A stretch of DNA of 64,000 nt from Escherichia phage vB_EcoM_JNE01, in sequence record OR670491. One strand, given 5' to 3'. Positions within the stretch are counted from its first letter, which is position 1; each line of letters starts with the position of its first letter. Shown here piece after piece: positions 52,525-56,179 of the stretch. Under the pieces are notes generated by a model. That model saw only the letters and a list, made by a program, of their open reading frames with translations. It did not search any database and had not been told where the DNA came from. A program made the position numbers and the translations under genes.

Positions 52525-52934
52525 ATCAATGCTACGAAATTAATGTAACAAAACCTGAAACAAGCACTTTGGAAGCGTTGGAAGACACATTAACAGTACT
52601 ACAATCTCCTGACAAAGAAACATCATTAGTAACCATTGAATACAAGGATTGTACGGTTGATGCTGGGAAACATCCAGAGTGGAAAGCACACCAATATTAC
52701 TCAATATACATTCGCTATGAAAATTTCATAACTGATATGGCCTACGCAGAGGACTATCTGTTACTGGAGAATCATTTTGTATTCAAACAAAAAGAATACA
52801 TGTATTGTACTCCTGAATATCTCGAAGAAGAAGAATTTCAGTATTCTTTGGTGCAGGATGAAGTTGAGTACAACAAAGTATTAGTACTGTCAAAAATACA
52901 TAAAATACTAAAGGATAAATATGTCACACAGTGA
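52521..52934 (+). CDS. family-A paralog
   Basis: C-terminal EEEEFQYSLVQDEV; ATG 52521 overlaps upstream stop. Confidence 0.45.
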   Translation: MNQCYEINVTKPETSTLEALEDTLTVLQSPDKETSLVTIEYKDCTVDAGKHPEWKAHQYYSIYIRYENFITDMAYAEDYLLLENHFVFKQKEYMYCTPEYLEEEEFQYSLVQDEVEYNKVLVLSKIHKILKDKYVTQ

Positions 52935-53091
52935 ATGGATGTACTTTATGAAACAAAAATATGCACCGCCTTTAAACGAAAGTATTAGCTACATTCACTG
53001 GAATGTAATCAAAAACCCTTCGTTATATAAACGATATTTCGTAGAACCAAATACTGGTTGGTTTTTAATGGAACTTATTTTTAGGGATTAA
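52921..53091 (+). CDS. family-B mini-protein (MSHSEWM...)
   Basis: 56-aa ORF, first of a tandem array; not in track. Confidence 0.4.
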   Translation: MSHSEWMYFMKQKYAPPLNESISYIHWNVIKNPSLYKRYFVEPNTGWFLMELIFRD

Positions 53092-53093
53092 TC

Positions 53094-53255
53094 ATGACAC
53101 ATGAAATTTGGTTAAACTTAATGGCACACGATTTAAAACGAAGTATTAAACACTGGGATCTATATCTGATGATGACTATCAATTCACCTGTGTACTATAA
53201 ATCTGTACTAGATGCTTCGGCCCTTACTTTCATTGCAATTTCTATGAGTAGATAA
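53094..53255 (+). CDS. family-B mini-protein (MTHEIWL...)
   Basis: 53-aa ORF; not in track. Confidence 0.4.
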   Translation: MTHEIWLNLMAHDLKRSIKHWDLYLMMTINSPVYYKSVLDASALTFIAISMSR

Positions 53256-53256
53256 T

Positions 53257-53421
53257 ATGTCATACGATGAATGGTTTGGTATGTGTCTCAAGAGATATTA
53301 CGGAGACATATACTATTTTGAGAATTTCATTTATAATTGTTTACGAAATAAAGATGAATACTATTCTAATATAGTTGTAAATGACGATTTCAGTACTTAC
53401 ATAGGTATATGTTTATCATGA
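53257..53421 (+). CDS. family-B mini-protein (MSYDEWF...)
   Basis: 54-aa ORF; not in track. Confidence 0.4.
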   Translation: MSYDEWFGMCLKRYYGDIYYFENFIYNCLRNKDEYYSNIVVNDDFSTYIGICLS

Positions 53422-53429
53422 GGTAACTA

Positions 53430-53615
53430 ATGACATATCAAGACTGGATTGAACGAATGGACAGAATCTTTGCCAATGACGTTTTTTATTTCAGAACAGG
53501 GGGTCTGGATAAAAGCATCAAAGACGATACTCTGTTTACCAGATGTATCATTGACTATCTGGATTGTTATGGTACAATGTATGGTATTGCCCGTACTACG
53601 GATAAAGATGAATGA
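53430..53615 (+). CDS. family-B mini-protein (MTYQDWI...)
   Basis: 61-aa track ORF. Confidence 0.45.
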   Translation: MTYQDWIERMDRIFANDVFYFRTGGLDKSIKDDTLFTRCIIDYLDCYGTMYGIARTTDKDE

Positions 53616-53785
53616 CACATAAAGAATGGTTGGTACAAACTAAACACTCGGTTATACCAGGTATGAAATTTTGGAATGAACAGTTGATGCACTTCGTAAG
53701 TAATAAAGTGTATTACGATGCATTCTTTGGAAAACATGCTACAATTGAGGTTCATGTGTATTATGCTATTGCATTTAGTGATTAA
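53612..53785 (+). CDS. family-B mini-protein (MTHKEWL...)
   Basis: 57-aa ORF, ATGA overlap; not in track. Confidence 0.4.
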   Translation: MTHKEWLVQTKHSVIPGMKFWNEQLMHFVSNKVYYDAFFGKHATIEVHVYYAIAFSD

Positions 53786-53788
53786 TTT

Positions 53789-53953
53789 ATGAAATATGAC
53801 CATTTAAAATACTATGCTGATAGAATAAATTATTATCCCTTTTATATAAGAAGCTTAGATGCATTAATATCAAAAAAAGTTGTATATAAACGATCTCAAG
53901 CTGATCTAACCAATATAGCATTCATTCTTGCAGTACTGTCTAAAATGGGATAA
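53789..53953 (+). CDS. family-B-like mini-protein (MKYDHLKYY...)
   Basis: 54-aa ORF, same size and aromatic-rich composition, divergent N-terminus. Confidence 0.3.
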   Translation: MKYDHLKYYADRINYYPFYIRSLDALISKKVVYKRSQADLTNIAFILAVLSKMG

Positions 53954-53978
53954 TGTTAAATTAGGATGAATACAAAAT

Positions 53979-54170
53979 ATGACACATGAACAATGGATGA
54001 AACAATTCAGTGAGGATTATAAAGCTGCCATATCCTTTTATGGAAAAAGATTCAACTATCTTTTTTGTAGTGAATATCATTATAGAAATATAGTTCTTTA
54101 TGAACAAACAGAAGGTGAAAAAGCTGCCGACCATTGGGTTGTAATGTACATCCTTGCTATGTCAAAATAA
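53979..54170 (+). CDS. family-B mini-protein (MTHEQWM...)
   Basis: 63-aa track ORF. Confidence 0.45.
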   Translation: MTHEQWMKQFSEDYKAAISFYGKRFNYLFCSEYHYRNIVLYEQTEGEKAADHWVVMYILAMSK

Positions 54171-54281
54171 CACAAAAAATATTTTAATAAATATATAGAC
54201 AATAGCGTTATATGAGATATAATGTTTGTCGTGAAGGAGAAAAGCATGATCGATGAATTCGACGGCTTTTAAATAATACAT

Positions 54282-54366
54282 GCACTTGTGGTGGAATCGG
54301 TATACACAACGGATTTAAAATCCGTCGCTTTATTGCTTGTGAGTTCAAGTCTCACCAAGTGCACCA
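54282..54366 (+). tRNA. tRNA-Leu (anticodon TAA)
   Basis: Hand-folded cloverleaf: acceptor GCACTTG/CAAGTGC, anticodon stem ACGGA/TCCGT with loop TTTAAAA, long variable arm, T-arm GTGAG-TTCAAGT-CTCAC, encoded CCA. Confidence 0.8.
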
Positions 54367-54373
54367 ACTCATC

Positions 54374-54441
54374 GCGTCCAGTTGTGGTAACAGTACAGGA
54401 TTCCGACCTAGTACATCAGAATTCGACTTTCTGTGGACGCT
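54374..54441 (+). ncRNA. tRNA-like element lacking a canonical D-arm
   Basis: Perfect acceptor GCGTCCA/TGGACGC and T-arm CAGAA-TTCGACT-TTCTG, but only 36 nt between; long bulged hairpin with loop ATTCCGA. Confidence 0.3.
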
Positions 54442-54849: not shown

Positions 54850-54881
54850 TACTGATAAATATTAATGAAAGGTATAGAGAA

Positions 54882-55079
54882 ATGACTAAATCCGAACTTC
54901 TGGCTTTATTAGAAAATTATCCAGATGATGCATGTATTGAAGTAGTTCACACTGCACAACATTTTGACATTGAAGATGTTGTACGATACAATGACAAAGG
55001 TGTGATGATTATGGAACTATGTATCGGTGCTTTGAAAACTGTGCCAGAATCAACTAAACGAAAATCCCAAAAGGAATAA
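54882..55079 (+). CDS. hypothetical protein
   Basis: 65-aa ORF, RBS AGGTATAGAG. Confidence 0.4.
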   Translation: MTKSELLALLENYPDDACIEVVHTAQHFDIEDVVRYNDKGVMIMELCIGALKTVPESTKRKSQKE

Positions 55080-55085
55080 AATATT

Positions 55086-55319
55086 ATGGAAACTAATACA
55101 ATTTTAGATGTAGTAAACAGTGTTAATACTGGTGACTTTGTTCACATTCTTTTATCCAACATCCGCGTTAAGGGTATTGTTGAAAGTGTTGATTCTGAAG
55201 TTCTAACTATTGTTGAAGTTGATCCATACGACAATAATAAATCAGTTCGTCTGTGCATTGATGTTTCCAAAATTGTAGCACTCGGTACAGAAATTATTAC
55301 TGAAGAAACTAATCTATAA
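55086..55319 (+). CDS. hypothetical protein
   Basis: 77-aa ORF, RBS AAGGA. Confidence 0.4.
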   Translation: METNTILDVVNSVNTGDFVHILLSNIRVKGIVESVDSEVLTIVEVDPYDNNKSVRLCIDVSKIVALGTEIITEETNL

Positions 55320-55330
55320 AACGACAATAA

Positions 55331-55406
55331 GCGGTAATCGTATAAAGGATATTACCTCGGTTTTCCAAACCGATGATGTGGGTTCGATGTCCCACTTACC
55401 GCTCCA
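55331..55406 (+). tRNA. tRNA-Gly (anticodon TCC)
   Basis: Acceptor GCGGTAA/TTACCGC, anticodon stem TCGGT/ACCGA with loop TTTCCAA, encoded CCA; T-loop appears 8 nt, so fold slightly atypical. Confidence 0.6.
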
Positions 55407-55460
55407 ACTTAAGAGGATTTAATATGTTTAAAGATGAACGTCCAGATTTGTAAATAATCA

Positions 55461-55489
55461 TTGACTAAATAATCCAGTACTGATAAAAT
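55461..55489 (+). promoter_or_regulatory. tRNA promoter, variant of the 29-bp repeat
   Basis: TTGACT, 17-bp spacer containing CCAGTACTGA, TAAAAT; tRNA-Ser 5' end lies 7 nt downstream. Confidence 0.6.
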
Positions 55490-55495
55490 AAATTT

Positions 55496-55582
55496 AGTGA
55501 AGTGGCAGAGTGGTTTAATGCAACGGTCTTGAAAATCGTCGAGGGTGAAAGTCCTCCGTGAGTTCGAATCTCACCTTCACTG
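55496..55582 (+). tRNA. tRNA-Ser (anticodon TGA)
   Basis: Acceptor AGTGAAG/CTTCACT, anticodon stem ACGGT/ATCGT with loop CTTGAAA, long variable arm, T-arm GTGAG-TTCGAAT-CTCAC. Confidence 0.8.
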
Positions 55583-55589
55583 TCAATAT

Positions 55590-55671
55590 CCGGGTGTATC
55601 TCAACGGTCTTCTAAACCGTCGTTAATCGAGTAACTGGAGTATGCAGGTTCGAGTCCTGTCACCTGGGCCA
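55590..55671 (+). tRNA. atypical tRNA-like gene, anticodon loop reads TCT (Arg?)
   Basis: Acceptor CCGGGTG/CACCTGG (one GU), hairpin ACGGT-CTTCTAA-ACCGT, T-arm GCAGG-TTCGAGT-CCTGT, encoded CCA; no room for a normal D-arm. Confidence 0.35.
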
Positions 55672-55692
55672 ATTTTAATTTAAGGTGTATCC

Positions 55693-55857
55693 ATGACGCA
55701 TGAAGAATGGATGAATGATATTAATTTTAGATATTCGGGTATCGGTAGTTGGCGAAAATATCATTGGGAAATTATATCAGACCCAGCAGAATACGATAAA
55801 CTTATAAACCATGAAGTATATCCGTGGTTCTTTATTGAAATAATGGTACGAATATGA
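55693..55857 (+). CDS. family-B mini-protein (MTHEEWMNDINFRY...)
   Basis: 54-aa ORF; near-identical 5' end to the next two copies. Confidence 0.45.
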   Translation: MTHEEWMNDINFRYSGIGSWRKYHWEIISDPAEYDKLINHEVYPWFFIEIMVRI

Positions 55858-56018
55858 CGCATGAAGAATGGATGAATGACATTAATTTTAGATATTCGGG
55901 TTTCGGTAAATGGCTAAAGTATCATTGGGAATTTATTACTGATCCTCAAATGTACGATAAACTTATAAATGATCAAGCATATGAAATTTACTTATTTGAA
56001 ATACTGGTCAGAACATGA
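55854..56018 (+). CDS. family-B mini-protein (MTHEEWMNDINFRY...)
   Basis: 54-aa ORF, ATGA overlap; tandem duplicate of the previous gene. Confidence 0.45.
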   Translation: MTHEEWMNDINFRYSGFGKWLKYHWEFITDPQMYDKLINDQAYEIYLFEILVRT

Positions 56019-56179
56019 CGCATGAAGAATGGATGAGAAAACAAAAGCTAACATGGAATCCTTATTGTTACCAGTTAGACCCAAGAATGTGGGATGTGAT
56101 ACGTATTAAATGTATGTACAAATCATTTCTTGGTGATATAATGGATGTTGAAGTACTGATGAATTTAGTACATCGATAA
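56015..56179 (+). CDS. family-B mini-protein (MTHEEWMRKQK...)
   Basis: 54-aa ORF, ATGA overlap. Confidence 0.45.
   Translation: MTHEEWMRKQKLTWNPYCYQLDPRMWDVIRIKCMYKSFLGDIMDVEVLMNLVHR

Follow-up and report, generated by a model that had tools for sequence, protein, structure and literature searches.

A tandem array of MTHEEW-type mini-genes in the tRNA region of Escherichia phage vB_EcoM_JNE01

A stretch of 64,000 nucleotides (nt) from Escherichia phage vB_EcoM_JNE01 (sequence record OR670491), referred to here as the window, contains at positions 52921-56179 a row of very short open reading frames (ORFs) arranged head to tail on the plus strand, and it was asked whether these ORFs are genes, whether they form one family and what such an array might do for the phage. 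A first-pass annotation made from the sequence alone had described about ten aromatic-rich mini-genes with a common start of the type MTHEEW. All ten consecutive ORFs were found in the ORF listing, each with a length of 53-63 codons, and they are organized in two blocks, c1 to c7 (52921-54170) and c8 to c10 (55693-56179). The start motif M-[TS]-[HY]-x-x-W is present in nine of them and absent from c6. Its strict form M[TS][HY]x[ED]W was detected seven times in a six-frame translation of the 64 kb, every time at the start of an array ORF, as compared to a mean of 0.01 matches per window in 200 first-order Markov simulations. The number of copies could be upheld for nine firm members; c6, lacking the motif and reaching 4.8 bits with the family profile, is doubtful. 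No additional member was found elsewhere within the window with a hidden Markov model (HMM) of the family. The richness in aromatic residues was also borne out, with Phe, Trp and Tyr accounting for 18.8% of the residues in the array proteins as compared to 10.5% in the larger ORFs of the window (Trp alone 3.75% versus 1.14%). The statement that the ORFs are mostly joined by ATGA stop-start overlaps was overstated: the two blocks contain eight junctions, of which only three are such overlaps (c4/c5, c8/c9 and c9/c10), the remaining ones being gaps of 1, 2, 3, 8 and 25 nt.

The region was compared with related genomes. The window belongs to an Asteriusvirus, a jumbo coliphage of the 121Q/PBECO4 group. 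The region is 98.2% identical to Escherichia phage Turkey5, and parts of it can be aligned with 121Q, PBECO4 and further jumbo myoviruses of Asteriusvirus. In Turkey5, the frames are intact and their order is kept; as orthologs or paralogs, the frames are furthermore kept in 121Q, PBECO4, G17, ELP-22, JP4, CMSTMSU, A4, BF17, SD-15_S21, UE-S1 and one metagenomic contig. The relatives compared thus comprise 12 loci, 11 from phages and one from the contig, and the preservation of the frames in all of them contradicts the absence of frame conservation that had been named as the sign of chance ORFs. Pooled ratios of non-synonymous to synonymous differences (pN/pS, Nei-Gojobori) were determined for three well-sampled ortholog groups and amounted to 0.41 for the c8/c9 group (16 unique genes), 0.35 for a paralog type absent from the window and 0.31 for the c10 group, values obtained from tiny genes by pooling non-independent pairwise counts. 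Codons inside the motif vary synonymously (ACA 40, ACG 10, ACC 2 and ACT 1; CAT 36 and CAC 12; both GAA and GAG are used); therefore, the motif is conserved as protein. Past their 5' ends, the paralogs cannot be aligned as DNA, but they can be aligned as protein. These comparisons indicate that the array ORFs are real genes under moderate purifying selection, and the proposed tandem paralog family of conserved mini-genes is in agreement with intact frames in the relatives and with pN/pS values of 0.31-0.41.

Chance ORFs within a DNA-level repeat, or real genes in a different frame or on the opposite strand, would be the alternative. Many short ORFs exist on both strands of the AT-rich DNA in this region, and the first 22 nt of c8, c9 and c10 are identical as DNA. 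However, 12 genomes preserve the frames and differ preferentially at synonymous sites, the paralogs align as protein and not as DNA, the motif varies synonymously and seven strict motifs stand against 0.01 expected; on the grounds of frame conservation, pN/pS and synonymous motif variation, this explanation was rejected as having practically no chance of being correct. The searchable literature yielded neither a transcriptome nor a proteome of cells infected with an Asteriusvirus.

Membership in one family was examined with HMMs. Leave-one-out models recovered seven of the ten copies with E values of about 1e-5 to 1e-16 (8e-6 or better); c3 and c4 were marginal (Table 1) and c6 gave an E value of 0.39. 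An iterated HMM including the relatives matched all ten copies at an E value of 1e-10 or better. Both c3 and c4 were counted as members because clear relatives in other phages tie them to the family, namely the "MQPKTFDEWF" type of PBECO4 and G17 in the case of c3 and a clear relative in phage A4 in the case of c4. With a model built without c6, this ORF scored 4.8 bits, a value reached by 89 of 2000 composition shuffles (p about 0.045); its size, position and hydrophobic C-terminus are consistent with the family, and its homology is doubtful. Identity among paralogs is as low as 15-30% at the amino acid (aa) level, and 21-25% for c10 as compared to c8 and c9. As judged from these profiles, nine copies constitute a single homologous MTHEEW family.

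Part of this family is already present in databases. PHROG 10970, a profile of 56 positions, is matched over its full length by c1, c8, c9 and c10 (E values from 3e-12 to 2e-27), and PHROG 31562 is matched by c3 (E value 1.7e-11), whereas c2, c4, c5, c6 and c7 have no PHROG match at an E value of 0.01 or better. Both PHROGs are listed with unknown function. They contain the same proteins, clustered earlier from 121Q and PBECO4-type genomes, but they divide the family, miss the five copies just named and hold no record of one tandem family of variable copy number sharing a motif. The records of Turkey5 and 121Q label the array ORFs as hypothetical proteins, with the exception of a tRNA-Leu annotated over c6 in Turkey5, and the entry identical to c1 is a hypothetical protein of vB_EcoM_JNE01. 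The members are hence known as hypothetical proteins, but they have not been described before as one family. Neither the ten copies nor 32 aligned members gave a meaningful match in Pfam, NCBIfam or PADLOC, and the PDB sequences contained no match to the family profile (best E value 1.7).

When 1.84 billion representative proteins were searched exhaustively with HMMER, 19 matches were obtained, consisting of 18 MTHEEW-type proteins of 43-64 aa and one spurious repeat protein; two word-index searches returned about 20 matches each. With tblastn against 50,697 phage records, the c8 type was found in 35 out of 35 Asteriusvirus records at 70-100% aa identity, and no match of this type was obtained outside Asteriusvirus. 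A degenerate DNA pattern for MTHEEWM retrieved from IMG/VR only 121Q and one contig, the ORF of which was not aromatic-rich and was judged to be a chance match. According to these searches, the family is confined to the Asteriusvirus lineage.

Copy number differs among the relatives from 5 to 12 per genome. Ten copies are present in the window and in Turkey5, nine in 121Q (one of them split by a stop codon), seven in G17, six each in PBECO4, ELP-22, JP4, SD-15_S21 and CMSTMSU (two of the latter broken), five each in A4, BF17 and UE-S1, and 12 in a divergent metagenomic contig. The split copy of 121Q is the ortholog of c5, annotated as genes 115 and 116 (locus L002, 3016-3189). The broken copies of CMSTMSU (locus L007, 1822-2005 and 3843-3986) belong to a record flagged UNVERIFIED, and sequencing errors are possible. 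The metagenomic contig (ENA ERZ14189038 NODE_170, locus L012) is Asteriusvirus-like and carries its 12 members at 286-4379, several of them with MTR, MTL or MTK instead of MTH at the start and one with a TTG start codon; its array adjoins a tRNA-Leu(taa) at the same relative position as in the window, and it contains a relative of c7. The paralog sets differ as well: the window lacks a type, with the signature FGxGIRQxHYD...WFIYELAxR, that all other phages examined possess, and c1, c2 and c7 are confined to the lineage of the window and Turkey5 among these phages. The range of 5-12 copies, the differing paralog sets and occasional broken copies indicate a family that turns over by gene birth and death.

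The three copies of the second block had been regarded as products of a recent tandem duplication. The near-identical 5' ends were confirmed, the first 22 nt of c8, c9 and c10 being identical, but a recent duplication was not, as c8 and c9 are old paralogs and c10 is deeply divergent. Overall DNA identity of c8 and c9 is 79%, and in every genome their first 54 nt are 96-98% identical as compared to 69-78% for the remainder; synonymous divergence is 0.00-0.12 in codons 1-18 versus 0.31-0.50 in codons 19-54. The duplication predates 121Q, G17, BF17 and CMSTMSU because each of the two paralogs has its own ortholog there. Past the first 33 nt, c10 shares about 40% DNA identity with c8 and c9. At its 5' end, c10 of the window has the codons ACG...GAA like c8 and c9, whereas the c10 orthologs in all other phages have ACA...GAG. 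The pattern in c8 and c9 points to homogenization of the 5' ends by gene conversion, or to constraint at the nucleotide level, rather than to a young duplication; from a few sites we infer that short conversion tracts may homogenize the 5' ends of c8 to c10. Genes with near-identical ends of 22-54 nt and tight spacing would lend themselves to unequal homologous recombination and to gene conversion, and unequal recombination at the conserved ends could delete or add whole genes. Such a process fits the mixture of phages carrying c8 only, c9 only or both.

A possible case of lateral exchange lies around c6. An island of 238 nt, containing c6 and running between the end of c5 and the beginning of c7, is 97% identical to the divergent metagenomic contig, which around the island is alignable only in tRNA genes, at 71-82% identity. 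Among the 50,697 phage records, the island is present only in Turkey5 and 121Q; its substitutions are few and mostly non-synonymous, and 121Q has one in-frame deletion of 3 nt. The simplest reading would be a recent lateral cassette exchange through conserved gene ends, and the island may also be a strongly constrained element of another kind. The Turkey5 record PQ471516 annotates a tRNA-Leu of 119 nt at 286028-286146 (locus L001, 2831-2949), corresponding to 53830-53948 of the window and hence lying over c6. Neither a tRNA by ARAGORN nor any Rfam match at an E value of 1 or better was obtained there, and no stable RNA fold was predicted for the island on either strand (z scores of +0.57 and +0.60). 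An RNA gene at c6 was therefore rejected, and the tRNA-Leu annotation is probably an artefact.

The proteins are mostly acidic or neutral. They contain no transmembrane-like segment, and a membrane or secreted location was dropped, the highest hydropathy over 19 residues being 1.16. A structure of c8 was predicted with AlphaFold2 using a family alignment of 20 sequences. The model contains helices at residues 3-13, 21-29, 31-38 and 43-52, with a mean local confidence (pLDDT) of 73.5 and a predicted template modelling score (pTM) of 0.40; conserved residues are mostly aromatic and distributed over all four predicted helices, and the hydrophobic pattern of the C-terminal helix is also kept. The family is thus predicted to form a soluble four-helix mini-domain. 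Searches of fold libraries with this model gave no informative match. Prediction of c6 alone, run to look for a common topology, resulted in two helices with a pTM of 0.34 and was uninformative.

Helix N-termini are often marked by a hydrophobic staple between residues N' and N4 and by a capping box consisting of an N-cap Ser or Thr and Glu at N3. In the model, M1-T2-x-x-E5-W6 could represent such a staple combined with a capping box, which fits the start of predicted helix 1 at residue 3. It would serve to nucleate helix 1 and bring Trp6 into the aromatic core of a mini-protein of marginal stability. A role of this kind would explain on structural grounds why conservation is highest at the N-terminus, and the motif would then be neither a leader peptide nor a modification site. 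Metal binding by the N-terminus through His3 was rejected, since several members have Tyr, Arg, Leu or Lys at this position.

The array is split by tRNA-Leu, tRNA-Gly and tRNA-Ser genes, as the first-pass annotation had noted; the gap also holds three unrelated ORFs and two tRNA-like elements (Table 1). Upstream of tRNA-Leu(taa), which is the first element between the blocks, lies a promoter-like site. The degenerate cloverleaf following it was called by neither ARAGORN nor Rfam. It is probably a decaying tRNA gene, because relatives (121Q, G17 and PBECO4-type phages) have a tRNA-Gly(tcc) at the equivalent place. A GTG ORF of 138 aa listed at 54433 begins inside this cloverleaf. The tRNA-like gene in front of c8 was not called by ARAGORN; G17, JP4 and UE-S1 have a tRNA-Arg(tct) at its position.

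A 29-nt repeat with the consensus TTGACTAAATA[AG]T[CT]CAGTACTGATA[AT]AAT, given also as TTGACTAAATANTNCAGTACTGATANAAT or TTGACT...TGATAAAAT, occurs four times in the window versus 0 expected. Conserved copies exist in 121Q, PBECO4 and A4; the repeat lies immediately upstream of tRNA genes and probably represents the consensus of early promoters in this group of phages. Downstream of the copy at 55461 come tRNA-Ser, the tRNA-Arg-like gene and c8 to c10, and the next copy follows only at 56572; therefore, co-transcription of c8 to c10 with the tRNAs by the host polymerase is likely, and the promoter at 55461 would drive this transcript. In the related phage CBB, RpoD-like promoters were described to cluster in a region of short hypothetical ORFs regarded as early host-takeover genes (PMC5259590).

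Table 1. Coordinates of the array ORFs and of other features in and around the array (positions in the window; LOO, leave-one-out HMM)
Feature	Position	Strand	Length	Start of protein	Remarks
c1	52921-53091	+	56 aa	MSHSEW...	PHROG 10970, E 3e-12; LOO E 1.9e-7; Turkey5 ortholog
c2	53094-53255	+	53 aa	MTHEIW...	LOO E 1.3e-7; Turkey5 ortholog
c3	53257-53421	+	54 aa	MSYDEW...	PHROG 31562; LOO E 0.04; iterated HMM E 2.7e-17; contains Cys
c4	53430-53615	+	61 aa	MTYQDW...	LOO E 0.23; iterated HMM E 1.2e-17; ATGA overlap with c5; contains Cys
c5	53612-53785	+	57 aa	MTHKEW...	LOO E 2.7e-7
c6	53789-53953	+	54 aa	MKYDHL...	without motif; basic (isoelectric point 9.6); doubtful member
c7	53979-54170	+	63 aa	MTHEQW...	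LOO E 6.7e-6; contains Cys
c8	55693-55857	+	54 aa	MTHEEWMNDINFRY...	PHROG 10970, E 2.4e-27
c9	55854-56018	+	54 aa		anciently diverged from its paralog c8; ATGA overlap with c8 and with c10
c10	56015-56179	+	54 aa	MTHEEWMRKQKL...	PHROG 10970, E 4.3e-19; divergent paralog; contains Cys
Island around c6	53765-54002	+	238 nt		from end of c5 to start of c7
Terminator-like hairpin	51544-51563				upstream of the three larger ORFs preceding c1
Promoter-like site	54196-54223				upstream of tRNA-Leu(taa)
tRNA-Leu(taa)	54282-54366	+			ARAGORN; Rfam 60 bits
Degenerate tRNA-Gly(UCC)-like cloverleaf	54374-54440	+	67 nt		anticodon loop ATTCCGA, T loop TTCGACT
Three non-family ORFs	54460-55319	+	129/138, 65 and 77 aa		no family HMM match; other PHROGs, function unknown
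tRNA-Gly(tcc)	55331-55406	+			ARAGORN, Rfam
Promoter repeat	55461-55489	+	29 nt		sigma-70-type, extended -10, TTGACT-17-TAAAAT
tRNA-Ser(tga)	55495-55584	+			ARAGORN, Rfam
tRNA-like gene	55590-55668	+			Rfam 33.3 bits; Arg(TCT)-like anticodon loop, long extra arm
Promoter repeat, further copies	56572-56600, 57126-57154, 60106-60134	+	29 nt
Second-family ORFs	51584-51970, 52021-52524, 52506-52934, 54433-54849, 56210-56575, 56758-57129	+	121-167 aa		six different PHROGs of unknown function; no Pfam match
Minus-strand ORF	57440-59137	-	565 aa		no Pfam match

Two further observations concern the neighborhood. Six plus-strand ORFs form a second, looser paralog family characterized by an acidic C-terminal motif near EEDEFQ(K/M)ST(V/I)Q. 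Furthermore, one long minus-strand ORF lies inside the otherwise plus-strand tRNA region and may be an inserted gene; UE-S1 has a minus-strand hypothetical gene of equal length (1698 nt) at a similar position, the likeness being one of length and position only, and 121Q, PBECO4 and G17 have none at that position.

What the proteins do can be approached by combining these results. Our best explanation, for which we see somewhat less than an even chance, is a lineage-specific four-helix family with birth-and-death turnover that is expressed early and binds host or competitor proteins. The mechanism would start with early transcription of c8 to c10 by the host RNA polymerase from the sigma-70-type repeat, together with tRNA-Ser, followed by translation coupled across the ATGA junctions. 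Each paralog would then bind a host or competitor protein, serving host takeover or acting against a defence system, and the diversity of the family would reflect selection to match variable targets. The guess that the array proteins are early cytoplasmic binders of this kind is based on the small size of the proteins, their probable early expression, their restriction to one lineage and the turnover of paralogs; drawn by analogy alone, it is the weakest step of the explanation and, taken by itself, tentative and rather unlikely to hold. Several points weigh against the explanation as a whole. The AlphaFold2 confidence is moderate only (pTM 0.40), and if methionine aminopeptidase removes Met1, as is likely in front of Thr or Ser, the staple half of the explanation for the N-terminal motif fails. 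Homogenization of the 5' ends rests on few synonymous sites (about 1/8.6 versus about 8/20 per genome), and no equivalent promoter was found for the c1 to c7 block. Furthermore, no likeness in sequence or fold to a known anti-defence or defence family, a Pfam or NCBIfam family or a PDB sequence was detected, and a pN/pS below 1 indicates constraint and not an arms race. A keyword search of three Asteriusvirus genome papers and a search for transcriptomics of 121Q and PBECO4 yielded nothing on the family.

The explanation has to be weighed against others. The mini-genes could have little or no host-directed function and be dispensable by-products of duplication and recombination, kept by hitch-hiking or as recombination scaffolds, and several results fit such a view: presence is patchy and loss is easy (c8 only, c9 only; c1, c2 and c7 only in the lineage of the window and Turkey5), copies are broken in 121Q and CMSTMSU, a pN/pS of 0.3-0.4 means fairly relaxed constraint, homing endonuclease genes are annotated nearby in relatives and the second loose paralog family occupies the same region. 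However, three independent ortholog groups each have a pN/pS clearly below 1, all 35 sequenced Asteriusvirus records contain a gene of the c8 type (70-100% aa identity), and paralogs with no more than 15-30% identity still have the conserved aromatic pattern and the predicted fold in common; we therefore consider by-products unlikely, though not by far the least likely of the alternatives. A role in tRNA biology, by which the proteins would mature or protect the phage tRNAs or block tRNA-cutting host nucleases in a region acting as counter-defence island, is less probable still. Interleaving of the family with tRNA genes is seen not only in the window but in all relatives examined, the metagenomic contig among them, and c8 to c10 directly follow tRNA-Ser and the tRNA-like gene downstream of one promoter repeat. 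The small T4 protein gene cef, which is linked to the tRNA cluster, affects tRNA maturation, and phage tRNAs have been proposed to counter tRNA-targeting defences. Proximity is nevertheless the sole evidence for such a role in the array: housekeeping tRNA processing would not predict 5-12 divergent paralogs, patchiness and broken copies, the mostly acidic or neutral proteins bear no similarity to RNA-binding proteins or nuclease inhibitors, and unrelated ORF families are located in the same region, which may simply tolerate insertions.

Precursors of ribosomally synthesized and post-translationally modified peptides (RiPPs), with the conserved N-terminus as a short leader and the variable remainder as modified core, would also appear as an array of small peptides conserved at the N-terminus and variable thereafter, and several copies contain Cys. 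But the conserved stretch comprises 6-7 residues inside predicted helix 1, the hydrophobic pattern of the C-terminal helix is conserved too, the prediction gives a single mini-domain for the entire chain and none of seven neighboring ORFs scanned matches any Pfam family, so that there is no sign of a modifying enzyme; precursor peptides are accordingly very improbable. A bolder version of the host-binding explanation regards the array as a diversified library of mini-protein inhibitors with variable surfaces on a common four-helix scaffold, which the N-terminal staple and capping motif and an aromatic core would hold fixed, each paralog directed against one defence system or tRNA-targeting nuclease; with the tRNAs, it would form an early counter-defence island reshuffled by recombination at gene ends, the c6 cassette being a recent exchange. 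We regard this version as a long shot, about as improbable as the role in tRNA biology.

The array shares properties with several known systems. Tandem duplication arrays have been described in jumbo phages, among them the tail-fibre genes of phAPEC6, and jumbo genomes have been proposed to have grown in this way; genus and process are the same here. Arrays of the phAPEC6 type, however, consist of large structural genes, whereas the MTHEEW array consists of mini-genes of about 55 codons in a tRNA/early region, with deeper divergence (15-30% aa identity) and turnover of copies between close relatives. Viral "gene accordion" and anti-defence expansions include the amplification of poxvirus K3L and clusters of small phage anti-CRISPR and anti-defence genes. 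Small tandem paralogs, copy-number variation, rapid divergence and a probable early location are shared with them, but the MTHEEW array has no link to these systems in sequence or fold, and its duplications are old and not transient. No regulator resembling anti-CRISPR-associated (Aca) proteins was identified among the seven array neighbors scanned (0/7 with a Pfam match). The tRNA clusters of T4-like and T5-like phages contain interleaved short ORFs of unknown function that are often variable and located near homing endonuclease genes. Short length and interleaving with tRNAs are likewise found here, and the records of Turkey5, JP4 and UE-S1 list HNH genes in the vicinity; homologs of the MTHEEW proteins were found only in Asteriusvirus. 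To our knowledge, no comparable single family with 5-12 paralogs is known among the small ORFs of T4-like and T5-like tRNA clusters. As a lineage-specific tandem family of small proteins, the array is a real and unremarkable kind of phage feature.

For the majority of jumbo phage genes no function is known, and phage inhibitors of host machinery or of defence systems have repeatedly been discovered among small early proteins. The family provides a compact set of candidates, with nine to twelve paralogs on one scaffold and a simple motif that can be mutated, and copies are naturally gained and lost across sequenced Asteriusvirus phages, several of which have been proposed for therapy. Current records label these genes as hypothetical proteins, split them between PHROGs and, in one record, apparently mislabel one copy as a tRNA. 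If the paralogs indeed bind different host targets, the array would represent a natural library of how a mini-protein fold diversifies; if they confer no phenotype, it would document how recombination at conserved gene ends drives turnover of the tRNA region.

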